A stretch of 64,000 nucleotides of DNA from the NCBI GenBank assembly GCA_964403585.1, contig CAYOFQ010000001.1, forward strand, positions 1,152,826-1,216,825. Reading direction: 5' to 3'. The DNA comes from an uncultured Gammaproteobacteria bacterium. Its GTDB lineage: Bacteria > Patescibacteriota > Microgenomatia > JALYQM01. Both the position numbers and the translations under genes were made by a program. Positions 10,667-20,743 of this stretch are shown here, piece by piece. The notes below the pieces were generated by a model, which worked only from the letters and a program-made list of their open reading frames with translations, was not told where the DNA came from and did no database searches. The first letter of the stretch is position 1. Each line of letters starts with the position of its first letter.

Positions 10667-10856
10667 ATTCTCATGAGTCTTGGTCAGAACCTAACTTTAA
10701 AAGATAGAAAACTGCATATTGATCTGCATAAACCACTACTGTTCATTGAAGAAATCAAATTATCTGAAAGGTCAGTTTATGAAGGGTTAGAACCTGAAAA
10801 AGAAAGCATTAATAAGCCATTATTAGAGAAATTATGGACTGAGAATCCAAGTGTGT

Positions 10857-10925
10857 TGCCGGACTAGGATTCGAACCTAGAAAAACGGATTCAGAGTCCG
10901 TTGTGATACCGTTTCACCATCCGGC
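10857..10925 (-). tRNA. tRNA-Gln (anticodon CUG), compact 69-nt form
   Basis: Canonical GGTTCGAATCC T-arm, anticodon loop CUCUGAA, acceptor GCCGGAU/GUCCGGC, discriminator A; no CCA encoded; D-arm short. Confidence 0.6.
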
Positions 10926-11063
10926 AGTAAAACACTGACGCCTATAGTACCACAAAAACCCCAGTCCAGGCAACACAGAAGCGGTAAGATAGGTTCAGTT
11001 TACTGTATTCCTTGGGACGGATTTTCTCTTTATAATCTTATGAGAATGTGATAGTATCGATGT

Positions 11064-11812: not shown

Positions 11813-13348
11813 TTACATAACCTTAATAGCCATAGCCAACCGCTCCAGACATACTTTCTTTCCGAGTGTTTCCATTGTTTCAAACAATGGTGGTGTCGCA
11901 CTTCGTCCGGTTACCGCCACACGAAGCACCATAAAGAAATCACCAATTTTCCATTGTTCAGATTCCAAAACACCTCGCATCAATCCTTCCAATATGTCAT
12001 GATTCCAGGTTTCAGTTACGGACAAAACGTCGTGTGCTTTTTCCAGCATCCGACGGGTTAATTCTGCATCCTTTGGCTTACCCAATAACAGTGTTTTCCA
12101 ATGATCGGAAGCTTCCTGATCCGTCGGATTAGTATCCAAAGTTCCGGCAGCTACGGCTTTTCTCTTTAGATCGCTCTTTAAAACTTGGTCAACTTCTTCA
12201 AAGAAAAAACGCACCAGATCATCAAATTCGGCAAGCAAATTAATCCGCTCCTTAACTAAAGGTAACACCGGCAGTATTTGTTGATGCGTATACCGTGAAT
12301 ATGTATTGCCAACGTCATCTTTTTCAGTCAATCTTCTAATTAGCTCCGAATCGGAAAGCGATCTCACCCATTGGCCATTTACCCAATCAAGTTTTTTAAG
12401 GTCAAATTTCGCTCCCTGAGAAGTCACGTCTTTAATCTCAAAAAGCCGCATAAATTCCTCGAAGGAATAAATTTCCTTACCTTCCGGATTATTCCAGACT
12501 ATGTTAGATAGATAGTTGAGAACCGCTTCCGGCAAATAGCCCAGCTTACGATAATAATCGACTGAGGCATGACCATGACGTTTAGATAATTTTCCTTTGC
12601 CTTCACTGTTTAATACCAACGGAAGATGAACATGTTGAGGTGCATCCCACCCAAAAAAACGGTATAAAAGGATATGTTTTGGAGTTGACGGAATCCATTC
12701 TCTCCCTCTAAAAATATGGGAGATTTTCATCAGATGATCATCAACAACCACCGCCATATGATACGTTGGATATCCATCCGCTTTAAGTAAAACCTGATCA
12801 TCAATTAGTTCACTGCGAAACTCAACATGACCGACAAGCGCATCTTCAAAGGAAATAATCTCACCATCTGGAACTTTCATACGCACAACATGAGCAACAC
12901 CGGCAGCCAGCCGATCCTGAACATCCTGCGCGCTTAACGTCCGACACAGCCGGTCATACATGGGAGGCTGGTGATTAGCCTCCTGCTGCTTGCGCATTTC
13001 CTCAAGTCGTTCTTTTGTACAAAAACAGTAGTACGCATGCCCTTTGTGGATTAATTCTTCAACATACGGCTTATATATTTCCAGCCGTTCAGACTGACGA
13101 TACGGCGCATAGGGGCCTCCCTTAACCGGATCTTCATCACCATCAAGCCCAAACCAGGAGAGCATACGGTACACAACATCTTCACCTCCCTGTACCAACC
13201 GGACACGATCAGTATCTTCCAAGCGAACGACAAATTGACCACCGTGTTTATGCGCATATGCATAGTCAAAAAGGACCTGATAAATTGTTCCTAAATGGGG
13301 AAAACCTGTTGGTGAAGGGGCAATTCTGGTACGTACTGCTTTTTCCAT
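11813..13348 (-). CDS. gltX: glutamate--tRNA ligase
   Basis: Class I HIGH motif PSPTGFPHLG and KLSKR (KMSKS) motif; 511 aa. Confidence 0.9.
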   Translation of the reverse strand: MEKAVRTRIAPSPTGFPHLGTIYQVLFDYAYAHKHGGQFVVRLEDTDRVRLVQGGEDVVYRMLSWFGLDGDEDPVKGGPYAPYRQSERLEIYKPYVEELIHKGHAYYCFCTKERLEEMRKQQEANHQPPMYDRLCRTLSAQDVQDRLAAGVAHVVRMKVPDGEIISFEDALVGHVEFRSELIDDQVLLKADGYPTYHMAVVVDDHLMKISHIFRGREWIPSTPKHILLYRFFGWDAPQHVHLPLVLNSEGKGKLSKRHGHASVDYYRKLGYLPEAVLNYLSNIVWNNPEGKEIYSFEEFMRLFEIKDVTSQGAKFDLKKLDWVNGQWVRSLSDSELIRRLTEKDDVGNTYSRYTHQQILPVLPLVKERINLLAEFDDLVRFFFEEVDQVLKSDLKRKAVAAGTLDTNPTDQEASDHWKTLLLGKPKDAELTRRMLEKAHDVLSVTETWNHDILEGLMRGVLESEQWKIGDFFMVLRVAVTGRSATPPLFETMETLGKKVCLERLAMAIKVM

Positions 13349-14705: not shown

Positions 14706-15632
14706 TTACTCCACCTTCCGCCATTCATAATTCCGGTACACCCACTCCACTACAGCCTTCGTCTCACCAAACCGGTCCGCACTCTTCAACAAAACAATGA
14801 TCACCCGATGACCGTTTCGATTCACTGTCGAAACAAGCACCTCACCCGCGTCTTCGGTATATCCTGTCTTAATACCATCAAGCCCGGGCACCTCACCAAG
14901 TAACTTATTCGTTGATTTAAGTACGTGGCGCTCTCCACCTAATCCATACACCGTTCGTTCTTTAGTCGTGACTATCGACCGAAACGTCTCGTTTCGCATC
15001 GCGAATGCGGCCAGTTGCCCCAAATCCCACGCCGTCATTTTATGATCAGGGTTCGGCAATCCGGAAGGATTCCGGAAACGTGTGTGTCGCAAGCCTAATT
15101 CAATTGCCCGCGTATTCATACGATCAATAAAAGCCGGATACCCGCCGGGATACGACATTGCCAACGTATCTGCCGCATCATTTCCGGAATTTATCAACAA
15201 ACCATTCAATAAGTTACGCACCGTTATTCGCTCATGCTTTTCCAGACGCATTAATGAACCCGAAAAACTTGCTTCCGGTACTTCAATCACATCATCCAGT
15301 CGGAATTCCTCCAAAGCAATCAACGCAGTCATTATCTTCGTAGTGGAGGCGGGAAACAGTTCATGATGGGCATTTTTTTGATAAAGTGGCACTGCCGAAT
15401 CAACATCAATAATAAAGACACCTTCGGCCGTAAGACTTGGCACATCCTCTGTACCGACTCTTTCCGGATACAGTGATAACGAAACATCCGCAAACCATTG
15501 TGGCAGCTCACGATACGCGGCCTTAAGCTGTGAATAGTCCAAGTTCCGGTAATAGGAATATCCCGGAACTTGAGCCATCACCAGCATCAGCAAAACCAGA
15601 AAATAGAGCGACGGATTACGGAATACAGACAT
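14706..15632 (-). CDS. dacA: D-alanyl-D-alanine carboxypeptidase (S11, PBP5-like)
   Basis: SxxK ASTTK, SxN SGND, KTG GIKTGYT; N-terminal signal peptide. Confidence 0.85.
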   Translation of the reverse strand: MSVFRNPSLYFLVLLMLVMAQVPGYSYYRNLDYSQLKAAYRELPQWFADVSLSLYPERVGTEDVPSLTAEGVFIIDVDSAVPLYQKNAHHELFPASTTKIMTALIALEEFRLDDVIEVPEASFSGSLMRLEKHERITVRNLLNGLLINSGNDAADTLAMSYPGGYPAFIDRMNTRAIELGLRHTRFRNPSGLPNPDHKMTAWDLGQLAAFAMRNETFRSIVTTKERTVYGLGGERHVLKSTNKLLGEVPGLDGIKTGYTEDAGEVLVSTVNRNGHRVIIVLLKSADRFGETKAVVEWVYRNYEWRKVE

Positions 15633-15650
15633 ACTCTATGCCATTATACG

Positions 15651-16979
15651 TTATTCTTCCGACATCTGAGACAGTCTAAAATCAATCCGCTCCATATCAC
15701 GCGGGAACATTGCTGCTTCACGAATATTTTCCAGTTCCAGAATCTGTTTGGTTATTCGCTCAGCCCCGAAGGCAAATCCCCCTTCCGGAGGTGCTCCGTA
15801 TTTAAACGCATCAAGAAACATCCGTACTTTCTCGGGATCCATATTCCACTCTTCGACATGTTTCATCAGCTGATTATAATCATTGATACGTCGACCTCCG
15901 GATAACCACTCTACACCCCGGCAAAGAAGGTCCATACCTTCGTTGTATTCAGGCTCTTCCGGATTGGGATACACATAGAACGGTTTTTTCTTGGTTGGAT
16001 ATCCGTACACAAACACCAGATCGGATCCGGTTTCTTCTTTGATAATTCGGCAAAGCTCACGCTCATCTTCAGGATTTAAGTCTTTTTCACCACGAACATC
16101 ACGCCCGTTTTTAGCAAATATCTTTTCCTGAGCTTCACGTAAGCTTAAGGTAGGTGTTTTTTCAATCGTTGCCGGAATCTCCACACCAAACAATGCAACT
16201 TCCTTGGCACACTTTTCACCAACCTGCTGCAAAATATATTTAACTACCCCGTCAGCCATATCGCGCACATCGGTCCACGATTCAATAAATCCCATTTCGG
16301 CATCCAGCGATACAATCTCAGTCAAGTGACGTGTAGTGACAGAAGGTTCTGCCCGGAATACTTTGTTAACGGAAAAAACGCGTTCGAAAGCTGTCATGAC
16401 AATCTGTTTATACAATTGTGGACTTTGCGTAAGATAGGCTTTTTTATCAAAGTACTCAACTTCAAAAACCTCCGCTCCACCTTCAGCGGTTGCCGGTGCA
16501 ATCGCCGGCGCCTGGAATTCAAAAAAGTCATGTTGTTTCATGTATTCCCGGAAAGCATCAATCACAACTTCCTGCACTTTGAAAATCGCCTGTACACGCG
16601 GGTGTCGCAAAGTTAATGCCCGGTGATCCAGGAGTGTCGGTAATTCTACATCCAAGACATCCTTTGACATATCAAACGGCAAAGTCGCTGATTTTGCCAA
16701 AACCGTATACTCTTCCACATCCAGCTCAATCTTACCCGTCTCTAAGTCAGGGTTGATTGCTTTTTCCGAACGATTCTTAATCGTTCCAACAATTTGCACC
16801 ACATCCTCTTTACCCAACTCCGACATCTTCTGGTAACCAACCAGTTGAATCTTCCCTGAACGGTCACGTAAATCTATGAAAGTCAACTTACCATGGTCAC
16901 GCTTGGTATCGACCCATCCTTTAAGTAATACCTTTTCGCCTACCTTTCCGGTAGTTTCCCGAACTAATGTTCTTTCCAT
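15651..16979 (-). CDS. class IIb aminoacyl-tRNA synthetase: aspartate--tRNA ligase (archaeal/type-2) or asparagine--tRNA ligase
   Basis: N-terminal OB fold; motif 2 FRAE; QSPQLYKQ; motif 3 GFAFGAERI; 442 aa. Asp versus Asn specificity cannot be resolved by eye. Confidence 0.85.
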   Translation of the reverse strand: MERTLVRETTGKVGEKVLLKGWVDTKRDHGKLTFIDLRDRSGKIQLVGYQKMSELGKEDVVQIVGTIKNRSEKAINPDLETGKIELDVEEYTVLAKSATLPFDMSKDVLDVELPTLLDHRALTLRHPRVQAIFKVQEVVIDAFREYMKQHDFFEFQAPAIAPATAEGGAEVFEVEYFDKKAYLTQSPQLYKQIVMTAFERVFSVNKVFRAEPSVTTRHLTEIVSLDAEMGFIESWTDVRDMADGVVKYILQQVGEKCAKEVALFGVEIPATIEKTPTLSLREAQEKIFAKNGRDVRGEKDLNPEDERELCRIIKEETGSDLVFVYGYPTKKKPFYVYPNPEEPEYNEGMDLLCRGVEWLSGGRRINDYNQLMKHVEEWNMDPEKVRMFLDAFKYGAPPEGGFAFGAERITKQILELENIREAAMFPRDMERIDFRLSQMSEE

Positions 16980-16984
16980 AAAAC

Positions 16985-17165
16985 CTCCTAAATACTAAAA
17001 AAGCCCTTATAAAATTACCTAAACGATAATTATATAAGGGCGCTTTTCGCGCGGTGCCACCTTACTTTGTGCTCATTGACGGCTATAACGGGCGTTCCCG
17101 GAGAGTTCTACTACCAAGAAGGGTTCTTCTCTCAGCTCACCTGTGTCGCAGGGTCATTGCTTTTC
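16985..17165 (-). promoter_or_regulatory. T-box riboswitch leader of the Asp/Asn-tRNA synthetase gene
   Basis: Minus-strand AAGUAAGGUGGCACCGCGCG (T-box core GGUGGNACCGCG) at 17048..17067, overlapping the 5' arm of a terminator GCCCUUAUA...UAUAAGGGC + U6 (16996..17041). The T-box 5' half mimics the terminator 3' arm. Candidate -35 TTGTTC / -10 TATACT at 17197..17170. Confidence 0.65.
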
Positions 17166-17373
17166 ATTGAGTATACCATACATTGTTATAAGAACAAGAA
17201 AGACATAGTAAAATAGTCGATATTTCTTACCCAGATAGCGCTAAAAACCCCTTTAATTGACAAAATAAGTTAAAATAGTATAATATCCTATAATATAAGT
17301 ATATAAGGATAACTAAGCGACAGTAACCAAATTATGCAGTAATAGGGGTATATAAGTATCCTTAGTTCCAGCC

Positions 17374-17400
17374 TTGACAAAAGGATCTGTGTACTATAAA
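17374..17400 (+). promoter_or_regulatory. candidate sigma70 promoter (TTGACA-N15-TATAAA) for the 17619 gene and its leader
   Basis: TTGACA at 17374..17379, TATAAA at 17395..17400. Confidence 0.35.
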
Positions 17401-17549
17401 AATAGTCTGTTATATGATTAATAACTCAGTTTCTACCAATTACCTTAACCTCAATCTCATTAATTACGGGATTCGTAATTTTGCGTTTATTCATGCAAAA
17501 AAGCAAAGGGGGTAAGTTTTTAAACGCTAAACCGAATAAAACAGACCAA

Positions 17550-17575
17550 ACCCCCTCAACAAAGGGGGTTTTTCC
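17550..17575 (+). terminator. intrinsic terminator/attenuator in the 5' leader of the 574-aa gene
   Basis: ACCCCCU-CAACAA-AGGGGGU followed by UUUUUCC; upstream AAGGGGG (17506..17512) can alternatively pair with CCCCCU. Confidence 0.5.
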
Positions 17576-17618
17576 GTTAAATATAGGAGTAATTTAACAG
17601 GATAGAGAAAGTACAAAT

Positions 17619-19343
17619 ATGAGCGTAGAGACAAATAATCGCTATAAAACCTTTGATTCTCAATTGCTTTTAGGCAATACGGGAATCTTTGGTCGCCGCC
17701 GGGAAGATACTCTTCCCCTCTACGCCCCTTTGAACAGAAAGTTGGCCGATGTTCGTCCATATACCCGAATGAGAATCGACGGCCAAGACTACAATGCAAT
17801 TTCCGACTTCCGTACCGTGCGATCATTATTAAATGACTTAATTCCGACGCAGGCAGATATAATTCGTTGGGGAGTAACCCACCCGGACATCGTACATAAA
17901 CACCAGTCCGAGTATATCGGGGCTCTTTCAGCTCAATCCGTTCGACAACCCGGAGAAAAGTTAAATATAGCTGAGGCCATATTAGCCATCAATAGTCAAA
18001 ATGAAATCCTCCAAGAAGTTGCTCGTGACAATTTAATTCGGATTATGATGGAACGTCATGGATTTAACCCTAATGATGAATGTGATAGTGAAAAATTCAA
18101 CCAATACCTATTACAAGGCACTAGAGTAGCCGACGAACTCATCAACGAAGAACGCGATTTTCTAACCCCTGTTTGGGAAAAATCATCACTCCCTACCGTA
18201 ACAGAATTACAGGAACAAGTTAAAACTGATAATTTGTACACATTAATCCGATTCGCAACAAATCCTCGTGCAACCGCAAAAATACGTGAAGAAGCAACAC
18301 GAAAAGCAGTATTAATTGACCAAGCGATAGCGGCTATCTTGCGGATTGAGTCCGCAAACGGAACCATTGAAGAGGTTCATAAAGTTCTTGATGCCCACTT
18401 ATGGGAAGAAGAACAAATTGGCGAAATCCAACTCCGTGGTATTGTAATGACCCATGATGTTCGTACAGAACGATGCTTGTCTTGGGAAATCTACGATCCA
18501 CAAAAGCACGGCGCTCGTGGAAGTAGACTTCCCAAAGGTGAAACCTGGGTACAAAGATACTATGAAATGCCGTTCCACCAAATAATTCATAACGAGGAAC
18601 AACTCCAGATCCTAATGACCAGTCGAAAAAAGGAAGACGTCGCAACTCTTGCAAAATTACTCTTGAAAAACGGTGAACTCCCTGAAGATATCCGTGGAAT
18701 CCGATTCGTAGTCGATAGTCCTGAGCACGCAAAGTTGTTATCACAGCTCCTGGTTAATGCATTTCATAAATCAGGTTGGTTGCTAATGCCACAAGAGAAA
18801 GGACAAACTTTAACCCTCACTGGAGGTTTCAGCATCGAGCTAGCTGATGGGACTCACTGCGAATTTGTTCCTCCAGATGAAGTTATCAATCAAGCCAAAA
18901 GTAGCGGATTCGGCGTATTGCAATTTGATGCCCAAGTTGAAGCAGCAACTCCAACAGCACAACACACGTTACACCCAATGAAACAATTTGAGGTTCAAAT
19001 ATTCTCGATTGCCTCACTCAGAAATTCCCAGCGAGAATGGGAAATCGGTGATCCTAAACCAAATTTTCATGCCGGATATGTTTTGACAAAACGGTTCTTC
19101 GAGCGAAGGATAATCCTAGACCAGTTTGGTAACCCGGCAACAGCGGACAACTACTACACGCGATTATTCCCGGATTGGTATCTAACACGAATACAACAGA
19201 GAAGAGACGAAACAGACGTAGATAGAGCATCCCGTATCAGAACAATGCTAGATTCAGAGGAACAACCATTCAGATTAATGCTTATAGAAGGAGCTCACCG
19301 CCGTATTAGAGATGAGAGCTCAAACCGCTACATCCCATACTAA
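17619..19343 (+). CDS. hypothetical 574-aa protein with a possible divergent RelA/SpoT-like (nucleotidyltransferase) core
   Basis: Long uninterrupted ORF. Central region carries SRKKEDVATLAK, PEDIRGIRFVVD, GGFSIEL and FEVQIFS..REWEIG, which align in order with GRAKHMYSLWKK, ADLIAVRVIL, NGYRSLHT and MEVQIRT..AEYGIASH of the genuine Rel in this window. Confidence 0.45.
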   Translation: MSVETNNRYKTFDSQLLLGNTGIFGRRREDTLPLYAPLNRKLADVRPYTRMRIDGQDYNAISDFRTVRSLLNDLIPTQADIIRWGVTHPDIVHKHQSEYIGALSAQSVRQPGEKLNIAEAILAINSQNEILQEVARDNLIRIMMERHGFNPNDECDSEKFNQYLLQGTRVADELINEERDFLTPVWEKSSLPTVTELQEQVKTDNLYTLIRFATNPRATAKIREEATRKAVLIDQAIAAILRIESANGTIEEVHKVLDAHLWEEEQIGEIQLRGIVMTHDVRTERCLSWEIYDPQKHGARGSRLPKGETWVQRYYEMPFHQIIHNEEQLQILMTSRKKEDVATLAKLLLKNGELPEDIRGIRFVVDSPEHAKLLSQLLVNAFHKSGWLLMPQEKGQTLTLTGGFSIELADGTHCEFVPPDEVINQAKSSGFGVLQFDAQVEAATPTAQHTLHPMKQFEVQIFSIASLRNSQREWEIGDPKPNFHAGYVLTKRFFERRIILDQFGNPATADNYYTRLFPDWYLTRIQQRRDETDVDRASRIRTMLDSEEQPFRLMLIEGAHRRIRDESSNRYIPY

Positions 19344-20743
19344 ACCTGCTCTAAGATTCTTTTTTCAAGGTATTCTTTTGTATTCTTGGCAGGATCATCC
19401 AGAACTTCTTCAAATAACTGATTAAGCGTTTGTCCAATTTTCGGTCCGGGAGGAATAGCGAGAATACGCATGACATCACGCCCATCAATAGCCAAATCCT
19501 TCACGGTAAATGTTGGCATCAGCAATGTTTCAATGCGCTTTTTGAACTCTTTCAACCGCCAGCCTTCCGGGTCCTTGGTTCCGCTCCCTAAACGATCACC
19601 AATGCGCACATCAACCATATCATTAATATTTTCCACCCCGACCTTCCGGATAAACCGCCGCACCGCCGCATCGGTCTGAATCGTATCTACACTAAACATA
19701 TGATGACGCACCAGAGTGTACAACTTCTCGCGGTCTTTTTTTGACAAGTGTAATCGCGCAGCAATAGCACGAACCATTTTTCCGCCCACTATATCGTGAT
19801 TATAAAAAGTATTGATACCGTCACGCACTTCATGCGTAACCGGCTTACCGATATCATGTAACAGTGCCGCCAAACGGACAATGCCGTCATTGGAAGGACA
19901 ATGTCTCAACGCATTAAGACTATGCTCAAAAACATCAAATACATGATGACCTCGCTGATCAAGACCCCGACCGGCGACCAGTTCAGGCAAAATAAACTTG
20001 AGTAGCCCCAGGTCGTCCAATAAATGAACTCCCTCATAAGCGCGATCCGACTTAATCACTTTCAGCAACTCATCACGAATACGCTCTCCCGAAATATACT
20101 GGATGTTTTCACTTTTCTGCTTAATTGCCTCAGCTGTTTTTTCCTCAATTGCAAAACCAAGCTGACAAGAAAAACGGACTGCACGTAACATGCGCAACGC
20201 ATCTTCATGAAACCGCTCGCTCGCTACACCAACTGCGCGGATAACCTGCCGCTGAAGGTCAACCAATCCACCATAGGGATCAATCAAGACAAACTCACCA
20301 ACTCCCAGACGAACCATTCCTTGCGAATCCTCACTAACACCGGATAAAATATCTTTCTCAATTCGCAACGCAATTGCGTTAATAGTGAAATCCCGCCGTA
20401 ATAAATCGTCTTCAATGGAATCTCCCCAGCTGACCGAATCCGGACGTCTGAAATCAGTGTATGAACCCTCACTGCGAAAAGTTGTGACATGAACGACAAT
20501 CGGATCCTCAACAACACGCATAACAACGCCAACCGTACCAAAAGAGTTGTCATAGAACGTCTCTTCAAAAAGCGCCTGCACTTGTTCCGGAGTAGCATTG
20601 GTGGTAACATCCCAATCATTCGGTTCTTTATTCAGCAATACATCCCGGACCGGACCGCCAACAACATATCCTTCATAGCCTGCCGCAGCAAGCTTTTTTA
20701 GCGTTATCATAATATAATGAGGAACAAAGATATCCGAAGCCAT
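19340..20743 (-). CDS. cca: CCA-adding enzyme / tRNA nucleotidyltransferase with C-terminal HD domain
   Basis: Pol-beta head GGPVRDVLL...DWDV, RxD motifs, HD domain LLHDIGKP; 467 aa. Confidence 0.85.
   Translation of the reverse strand: MASDIFVPHYIMITLKKLAAAGYEGYVVGGPVRDVLLNKEPNDWDVTTNATPEQVQALFEETFYDNSFGTVGVVMRVVEDPIVVHVTTFRSEGSYTDFRRPDSVSWGDSIEDDLLRRDFTINAIALRIEKDILSGVSEDSQGMVRLGVGEFVLIDPYGGLVDLQRQVIRAVGVASERFHEDALRMLRAVRFSCQLGFAIEEKTAEAIKQKSENIQYISGERIRDELLKVIKSDRAYEGVHLLDDLGLLKFILPELVAGRGLDQRGHHVFDVFEHSLNALRHCPSNDGIVRLAALLHDIGKPVTHEVRDGINTFYNHDIVGGKMVRAIAARLHLSKKDREKLYTLVRHHMFSVDTIQTDAAVRRFIRKVGVENINDMVDVRIGDRLGSGTKDPEGWRLKEFKKRIETLLMPTFTVKDLAIDGRDVMRILAIPPGPKIGQTLNQLFEEVLDDPAKNTKEYLEKRILEQV

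Follow-up and report, generated by a model that had tools for sequence, protein, structure and literature searches.

We analyzed a 64,000-nt stretch of DNA (the window; contig CAYOFQ010000001.1 of assembly GCA_964403585.1, forward-strand positions 1,152,826 to 1,216,825) from a genome that is titled uncultured Gammaproteobacteria bacterium and is placed by GTDB in the Patescibacteriota (Microgenomatia; JALYQM01). Directly 5' of its gene for an archaeal-type, non-discriminating aspartyl-tRNA synthetase (AspRS), aspS, we found a T-box leader at ~17163..16997 on the minus strand. We conclude, with a probability of about 0.85, that this leader works as a T-box riboswitch of reduced architecture that responds to tRNA-Asp and acts by attenuating transcription. 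The observations behind this conclusion are the sequence elements of the leader, their covariation among relatives, two mutually exclusive helices, the match between the Specifier and the gene that follows, and the conserved position of the promoter. Unless stated otherwise, positions refer to the window.

Identity and relatives of the aspS leader

The original prediction had placed a T-box leader before a synthetase gene at this locus, and the sequence it quoted is found letter for letter at 17166..16995 of the minus strand, with the T-box core GGUGGCACCGCG at 17060..17049. A default Rfam scan of the 64-kb window at the gathering threshold reported three tRNAs and nothing at the aspS leader. 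The T-box model RF00230, which the original prediction had proposed as a check, does score the region when run in E-value mode: it matches 17166..17033 (-) with 47.5 bits, below the gathering score of 93, and with E-values of 2.5e-9 in a local scan and 2.5e-7 across the window on both strands. The alignment fits well at the kink-turn (K-turn), Stem II, Stem IIA and the T-box/antiterminator, and 5 nt stand for 76 Stem I model positions and 4 nt for 19 Stem III positions. The low score thus reflects the loss of the greater part of Stem I and of the whole of Stem III. Model R2, built from 30 metagenome leaders with the window and its close relatives excluded, gave the leader 112.5 bits (E about 1.5e-25), its sole match in 64 kb. 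We found no second T-box in the window with Rfam in E-value mode, with R2, or with model R1, which was built from leaders of the Candidate Phyla Radiation (CPR). RF00230 gave nine related leaders scores of 43-61 bits and missed L027, and since these scores fall short of the gathering score, standard annotation is blind to this class of leader. The verbatim sequence, the window-wide E-value and the R2 score bear out the T-box before the synthetase, and the claim that the leader is unusually short also holds: its aptamer is ~130 nt, compared to 219 positions in the RF00230 model, because the T-box is heavily reduced. It is not, as had been claimed, a textbook T-box, since its Stem I is ultrashort, Stem III is lacking and the sensor pair is G-C.

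Relatives were collected in two ways. In a protein-anchored scan, with one genome per GTDB species, we examined 80 AspRS loci, nearly all of them, by title, from CPR/Patescibacteria metagenome-assembled genomes (MAGs; WWE3, Levy-, Nomura- and Paceibacteria, Kaiserbacteria and others). All 14 orthologous leaders found there have a short K-turn hairpin with a loop ending in GAC-A (AAC-A in L040 and L058), followed by a hairpin and a U-run, and a covariance model confirms the same 14 leaders and adds none. The hand-checked seed alignment has 92% paired cells, with compensatory changes in 16 of its 29 pairs; controls with slid partners gave 27-49%, and none of 500 shuffles matched the observed values. 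Several MAGs titled "uncultured Gammaproteobacteria" or "Pseudomonadales" carry a CPR-type AspRS, some with the aspS leader, as do two further MAGs titled Woesearchaeota and Pacearchaeota (the set is L001, L002, L006, L007, L010-L012, L016 and L079). Given their gene content and closest relatives, these titles look wrong.

We also searched metagenome contigs with a pattern that was agnostic to Specifier and gene (K-turn GAG, AAGAA, UAGAA, a short gap, and the T-box). Since every match had to contain GAG-N7-AAGAA, UAGAA and GGUGGNACCGCG, with a gap no longer than 50 nt, the invariance of these motifs is partly built in, and the unbiased evidence on it comes from the protein-anchored genomes. 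It returned at least 120 stretches, of which 80 were taken further, and R1 matches 72 of these. The eight pattern matches outside R1 are longer T-boxes of 214-231 nt with 33-80 Rfam bits, which we rejected as members of the aspS-leader class. The leaders fall into two groups. Those with high GC (0.62-0.70) have loops of the form C[C/U]AUCA, a UGGU bulge, no U-run and an isoleucyl-tRNA synthetase (IleRS)-sized open reading frame (ORF) at once, and are the known actinobacterial translational ileS T-boxes. The low-GC group (0.34-0.58), with at least 44 metagenome leaders of the same design as the window leader, has GAC or AAC loops (AUC in six) and a strong hairpin with a U-run. When 30 metagenome leaders are aligned, 98% of the cells are paired and compensatory changes occur in 15 of 24 pairs, and RNAalifold run on these independent leaders yields the same helices.

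Elements of the leader

The elements are listed in Table 1. In Stem I, the string AGC-AAU-GA ... GA-GCU falls on the K-turn of the RF00230 model. Compensatory pairs are seen in 2/3 of the C-stem and 2/4 of the upper helix in the seed alignment, and in 2/3 and 3/4, respectively, among the 30 metagenome leaders. The window leader has no long Stem I with a distal platform of interdigitated T-loop motifs (IDTM) for the tRNA elbow, and its Specifier lies in a 5-nt apical loop, as in Stem I of Class III T-boxes; the apical loops of relatives are 6-nt CUGACA or CAAACA.

Two candidate Specifiers had been named, GAC in GCGACACAGG and AAC in GGGAACGCCC. The first was correct, as it lies in the apical loop of Stem I, where [G/A]AC-A is invariant across 15 protein-anchored leaders. 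The second was not, as it sits in the Stem IIA loop, a pseudoknot strand whose sequence is not conserved. The comparison with orthologues that had been suggested gave a clear answer: the Specifier is GAC, replaced by AAC in the orthologous leaders L040 and L058 and, in the metagenome set, in 12 more. Among metagenome leaders with readable downstream sequence, all 34 with GAC or AAC stand before AspRS and all 29 with AUC before IleRS. We give almost no credence to AAC in GGGAACGCCC as the Specifier, with the leader sensing tRNA-Asn. The non-discriminating AspRS is the type of enzyme such a reading calls for, and AAC Specifiers do exist, but in the leaders that have them AAC occupies the Stem I apical loop, the position of GAC here, while the loop that holds the window AAC covaries with the downstream IIB strand.

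Transcription is predicted to start near A17163, at the foot of Stem I. An extended -10 element (TGnTAnnnT) is present in 32 of 57 low-GC leaders and mostly ends 5-6 nt before model position 1 (range 3-9). With the predicted promoter abutting the short Stem I, nothing can lie 5' of it. This bears on whether we have simply overlooked the long Stem I and the Stem III of an ordinary Class I T-box like that of Bacillus tyrS. Such a T-box would share the core, K-turn, Stem II, IIA and terminator that align to RF00230, but we consider this explanation hardly credible: the 76 and 19 model positions are deleted and the score is about half of the gathering score, the promoter lies too close for a longer Stem I to fit, RNAalifold gives no Stem III, and nine related leaders score similarly low.

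The proximal helix of Stem II shows compensatory changes in 5/5 pairs in both the seed and the 30-leader alignments, and the distal helix covaries as well (RNAalifold, 30 metagenome leaders). AAGAA and AGUAGAA match, by sequence only, the 5-purine string and S-turn that have been described for Stem II (PMC7583486, PMC7778990). With AAGAA and UAGUAGAA on either side of a covarying Stem II, the leader has the Stem II arrangement of Class III. Stem IIA covaries in both alignments. Its loop is predicted to form pseudoknot IIB by pairing ACGC with GCCGU, with one C bulged. Across 48 leaders, the mean loop-to-downstream complementarity is 4.29 nt, compared to 3.35 +/- 0.12 when loops are swapped, and 0/500 swaps equal the observed value.

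Stem III is absent. Of the arrangement 5'-RRRxG-Stem III-AA-3', only the purine-rich flanks ...AAUGAG-CAC-AAAG remain in the linker CAAUGAGCACAAAG, for which RNAalifold predicts no helix among the 30 independent leaders. Stem III is missing in 14/15 protein-anchored leaders, with one candidate in L002. The metagenome pattern limited the gap, so its absence in that set is partly built in, and the protein-anchored genomes are the unbiased set. When the leaders are listed side by side, the low-GC ones read RAAG/GAG, 2-4 nt, AAAG and then A1, whereas actinobacterial leaders retain a G+C-rich Stem III between AAGUG...AAG. The hairpin in L002, GAGU-UGAGAAU-ACUC, is the only Stem III-like one among the protein-anchored leaders. 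In L002 (2257-2429) and L007 (2265-2394) the K-turn region of Stem I has an additional hairpin on its 3' side, which makes a three-way junction.

The antiterminator has the UGGNACC bulge, and A1 and A2 pair in 100% of seed cells, with a compensatory change in A1 from AGGG/CCCU to AAGG/CCUU. UGGC stands at the bulge, as originally proposed. Among the leaders, the bulge is UGGU in 33/33 with AUC and UGGC in 36/50 with GAC or AAC. If the variable bulge base is complementary to the discriminator base, a tRNA identity element, this is how it should differ between A73 and G73; bacterial tRNA-Asp has a GUC anticodon and G73. The basal pair of A2 is G17052-C17040 in the window leader, so the G•U sensor pair is absent here; the RF00230 consensus has U at this position. 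Low-GC leaders have G-C here in 57/59 cases, and actinobacterial leaders have G-C in 3/28 and G•U in 24/28. The metagenome search pattern left this position free.

The original prediction of an exclusive choice between antiterminator and terminator holds. The strand GCGCCCUUA is both the 3' strand of the antiterminator and the 5' arm of the terminator, with GCCCUUA used in both, and the terminator hairpin belongs to the minimum-free-energy fold of the whole leader. The 3' arm that had been quoted, UAUAAGGGCGC, is the ideal complement of the shared strand; the actual arm is UAUAAGGGC, followed by U's. Folded in isolation, the terminator hairpin has -18.9 kcal/mol and the antiterminator -8.3 kcal/mol, and with the alternative that shares its strand being the stabler one, the default state would be OFF. 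A hairpin with a U-run is found in 53/59 low-GC leaders, in contrast to 1/28 high-GC leaders.

These observations also bear on translational control, in which the hairpin would sequester the Shine-Dalgarno (SD) sequence, as it does in the Class III ileS leaders of Actinobacteria. In favor of it, the leader has a decoding module like that of Class III, a class that "mostly regulates translation initiation" (PMC10482949). However, the SD (AGGAGG) lies 7 nt past U6, outside both alternative helices, and the hairpin runs straight into U6. The actinobacterial leaders, nearly all without hairpin and U-run, have an ORF that starts almost immediately, while the AspRS match in L116, L144 and L105 starts about 500-760 nt past the leader. 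We consider translational control very unlikely and favor transcription attenuation.

Table 1. Features of the aspS leader, its promoter and the genes behind it, in window positions.
Feature	Position	Strand	Description
Predicted promoter	17170..17197	-	-35-like TTGTTC 17197..17192, 16-nt spacer, extended -10 TGgTATACT 17178..17170
Ultrashort Stem I	17134..17161	-	C-stem AGC/GCU, K-turn, 4-bp CCUG/CAGG, 5-nt apical loop CGACA
K-turn		-	Bulge AAU; tandem pairs G17155-A17137 and A17154-G17138; fold deduced from sequence
Specifier GAC (Asp)	17145..17147	-	Conserved purine A17144 comes next
Stem II	17101..17133	-	Proximal helix GAGAG/CUCUC, AAGAA 17128..17124, short distal hairpin, strand UAGUAGAA 17113..17106
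Stem IIA hairpin and IIB strand	17079..17100	-	Hairpin CGG-GAACGC-CCG; predicted IIB strand GCCGU 17083..17079
Single-stranded linker	17065..17078	-	Purine-rich, CAAUGAGCACAAAG, 14 nt; occupies the Stem III position, no helix
Antiterminator	17035..17064	-	UAAGG-[UGGCACC]-GCGC-GAAAA-GCGC-CCUUA
Antiterminator parts			A1 UAAGG/CCUUA; 7-nt bulge UGGCACC 17059..17053; A2 GCGC/GCGC, loop GAAAA
Intrinsic terminator	16997..17041	-	39-nt hairpin 17041..17003, then U6 17002..16997
SD and aspS	15651..16989	-	SD 16989..16984; aspS ATG 16979, gene 16979..15651, 442 aa
S11 D-Ala-D-Ala carboxypeptidase	14706..15632	-	Pfam PF00768, 167 bits; start 18 nt past aspS stop

Among the relatives we noted a sub-type of ~110-120 nt that has neither the IIA/B pseudoknot nor Stem III, with a linker of ~14 nt from Stem II to A1. 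Its members are L034:2316-2437, L159:13361-13471, L105:5651-5761, L097:8142-8252, L123:780-890, L139:1180-1299, L156:3161-3270 and L085:2781-2893. The first six of these (L034, L159, L105, L097, L123 and L139) carry GAC or AAC Specifiers and have strong terminators of -24 to -32 kcal/mol, while no terminator of L085 or L156 was convincing. Natural T-boxes may not come smaller than this sub-type. We also noted four low-GC (0.34-0.47) AUC leaders with a UGGU bulge (L138:741-875, L111:1631-1768, L121:6725-6871 and L152:1628-1775), each followed by an IleRS match, confirmed as ileS by NCBIfam for L138. The hairpin and U-run have -25.9 to -27.7 kcal/mol in L138, L111 and L121 and are weak (-10.4) in L152, and the basal A2 pair is again G-C in L138, L121 and L152. 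They seem to be a terminator-type version of the translational ileS T-box of Actinobacteria.

Proposed mechanism and the regulated genes

By homology with studied T-boxes, we expect the leader to bind tRNA, to discriminate its charge and to permit readthrough in the following way. Transcription would begin near 17163, and Stem I would present GAC and a stacking purine A in its 5-nt apical loop. The K-turn would set Stem II alongside, so that the S-turn and AAGAA could clamp the duplex between the codon and the GUC anticodon, with the IIA/B pseudoknot as a geometric hub. The tRNA would be bound as in the solved actinobacterial Class III ileS T-boxes, its elbow uncontacted. The 3' GCCA of uncharged tRNA-Asp would pair with the UGGC bulge and stabilize the weak antiterminator (about -8 kcal/mol), which would block the terminator (about -19 kcal/mol plus U6) and lead to readthrough into aspS and probably the carboxypeptidase gene. 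Charged tRNA-Asp would be unable to stabilize the antiterminator, and transcription would stop at 16997.

Several points weigh against this mechanism. The IIB pseudoknot of the window leader is weak, with 4 bp and a bulge. The leader is present at only 14/80 orthologous AspRS loci, so it is dispensable in most relatives. ARAGORN found no tRNA-Asp, tRNA-Asn or tRNA-Ile in the window and the fetched loci, and the anticodon and G73 used above are those of bacterial tRNA-Asp in general. Transcriptional T-boxes are said to need an elbow-binding long Stem I for fast tRNA capture, Stem III is described as needed for binding of the tRNA 3' end and "indispensable for function," and the aminoacyl group is held to be sensed sterically, in the first place by the G•U pair (PMC7583486). 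Given that Stem III is missing here and the sensor pair is G-C, charge discrimination may differ or be poorer.

An extreme form of this concern is that tRNA-Asp is bound with weak charge discrimination or none, making the leader an abundance reporter or a fixed attenuator. Both parts of the published "steric sieve" are indeed absent or changed (PMC7583486). We nevertheless find this unlikely, as the UGGNACC bulge, A1 and A2 are strongly constrained, the bulge nucleotide tracks the amino-acid class, the purine-rich flanks of the lost Stem III are kept, and the position before the cognate synthetase fits the logic of charge sensing. A 3'-aminoacyl group must also still fit against the A2 base. 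A switch that responds to the charging of tRNA-Asp is the reading we keep.

The original prediction assigned the regulated gene to a class IIb Asp/Asn-tRNA synthetase, and the class and the Asp half of this were right. The product matches the NCBIfam model for aspartate--tRNA(Asn) ligase (NF003483) with 466 bits, against a cutoff of 353, and the asnS models give it 252-262 bits, far under their cutoffs. Pfam finds tRNA-synt_2 and an OB anticodon-binding domain. Judged by these model matches, the gene is an archaeal-type, non-discriminating AspRS of class IIb and not an asparaginyl-tRNA synthetase (AsnRS). Behind the GAC/AAC leaders of relatives, the AspRS is either of the archaeal type or a bacterial type of ~470 aa that seems to lack the central insertion domain (NF001750, 575-636 bits in two stretches; L113:2435-3844, L099:380-1792, L149:6745-8148, L114:827-2218 and others). 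With the same leader before both types, one leader design serves two non-orthologous AspRS lineages.

Behind aspS lies a gene for an S11 D-Ala-D-Ala carboxypeptidase, and the same gene order is repeated in two assemblies from independent environmental read sets that carry the identical AspRS; a further contig of >1 Mb bearing this AspRS was also listed. The carboxypeptidase is probably the second gene of the operon and co-transcribed with aspS, so that the charging of tRNA-Asp may also control an enzyme of the cell wall.

Divergent from the aspS leader is a consensus promoter, TTGACA-16-TATAAT (12/12), at 17257..17284 (+). The first plus-strand ORF starts at 17619 and encodes 574 aa with no Pfam match; a hairpin with a T-run is at 17552..17568. 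This arrangement implies a leader of about 330 nt. We considered 17291..17625 (+) as an RNA element and rejected it, given a folding z-score of only -1.46, no Rfam match and no conservation in L001. Other tRNA-related genes in the window are a GluRS/GlnRS-family gene (11813-13348, -), an adjacent tRNA-Gln(CUG) gene (10855-10926, -) and a gene for a CCA-adding enzyme (19340-20743, -). Rfam, R1 and R2 found no T-box-like leader at any of the three, so only aspS is under T-box control within the 64 kb.

Significance and comparison with known T-box classes

We tentatively suggest, at somewhat less than even odds, that the CPR/Patescibacteria leaders make up a distinct new T-box class with co-transcriptional, elbow-independent decoding, in which aminoacylation is sensed without Stem III or the G•U pair. 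If so, a different solution to charge sensing is implied, in which the pseudoknot and the purine linker possibly replace Stem III, and the class would include forms of roughly 110 nt that also lack IIA/B and are maybe the smallest natural tRNA-sensing switches. This natural class, backed by covariation, contradicts three generalizations drawn from structures and biochemistry of few Firmicute and actinobacterial T-boxes: that a transcriptional T-box needs a long, elbow-binding Stem I to capture tRNA quickly, that Stem III is required to bind the tRNA 3' end, and that the amino acid is sensed primarily by a conserved G•U pair. It is also an entire class of leaders that the Rfam threshold overlooks. 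In TBDB, the short-Stem-I model was run only on Actinobacteria and on Class I matches with a truncated Stem I (PMC7778990). In the literature we searched, no paper links T-boxes with CPR lineages, although an earlier mention of terminator-type T-boxes with a short Stem I is possible.

As far as that literature shows, no riboswitch-type regulator had been defined before in CPR bacteria. Very little is known of how these bacteria regulate their genes, and there is a search for genetic tools that would allow inducible expression in them (PMC11665869). If the leaders work as predicted, they offer a system of about 110-135 nt for probing minimal tRNA decoding and charge sensing, and useful small tRNA-responsive parts for engineering. 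The switching between GAC and AAC before AspRS would be a readout of the growth-limiting tRNA pool where Asn-tRNA is probably made indirectly.

The closest known systems are the Class III T-boxes, defined by a short Stem I that lacks the elbow-binding platform and holds the Specifier in an apical loop of five or six nucleotides, and by a required Stem II (PMC10482949). The aspS leaders share with actinobacterial ileS leaders the short Stem I, the apical Specifier followed by a purine, the K-turn, Stem II with a 5-purine string and S-turn, and UGGNACC, and R1, although made from CPR leaders, picks up the actinobacterial ones with 25-52 bits. The ileS leaders of Mycobacterium tuberculosis, M. 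smegmatis and Nocardia farcinica are reportedly the subject of the 2015 study by Sherwood. Unlike the actinobacterial leaders, which act by SD sequestration, keep a Stem III, have G•U at the base of A2 and are specific for Ile only, the aspS leaders use an intrinsic terminator with a U-run, are without Stem III, have G-C in the low-GC group, and occur in low-GC CPR/Patescibacteria hosts with specificity for Asp/Asn and, in a few cases, Ile. The translational platform that is typical of Class III, although not defining for it, is absent from the window leader.

The Class II glycine T-box of B. subtilis glyQS resembles the aspS leader in being a naturally reduced transcriptional T-box, and it shows that modules can be lost, but the losses are opposite: glyQS has dispensed with the Stem II domain, and both Stem III and a long Stem I are retained (PMC10482949). 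With the Class I T-box of B. subtilis tyrS, the aspS leader has in common antitermination, the K-turn, Stem II, the IIA/B pseudoknot, the T-box, the terminator and a cognate synthetase gene. It differs from tyrS in having no long Stem I, Specifier internal loop, AG bulge, distal platform or Stem III, and in its G-C sensor pair. Finally, Saad et al. are said to have described in 2013 (PNAS) an "NT-box" in Clostridium acetobutylicum before the operon for a non-discriminating AspRS and GatCAB, which reportedly can use an Asn (AAC) Specifier and in which codons overlap within an internal loop of a long Stem I. There too a T-box stands before a non-discriminating AspRS, and its AAC is that of L040, L058 and the 12 metagenome leaders, whereas the window leader carries GAC.

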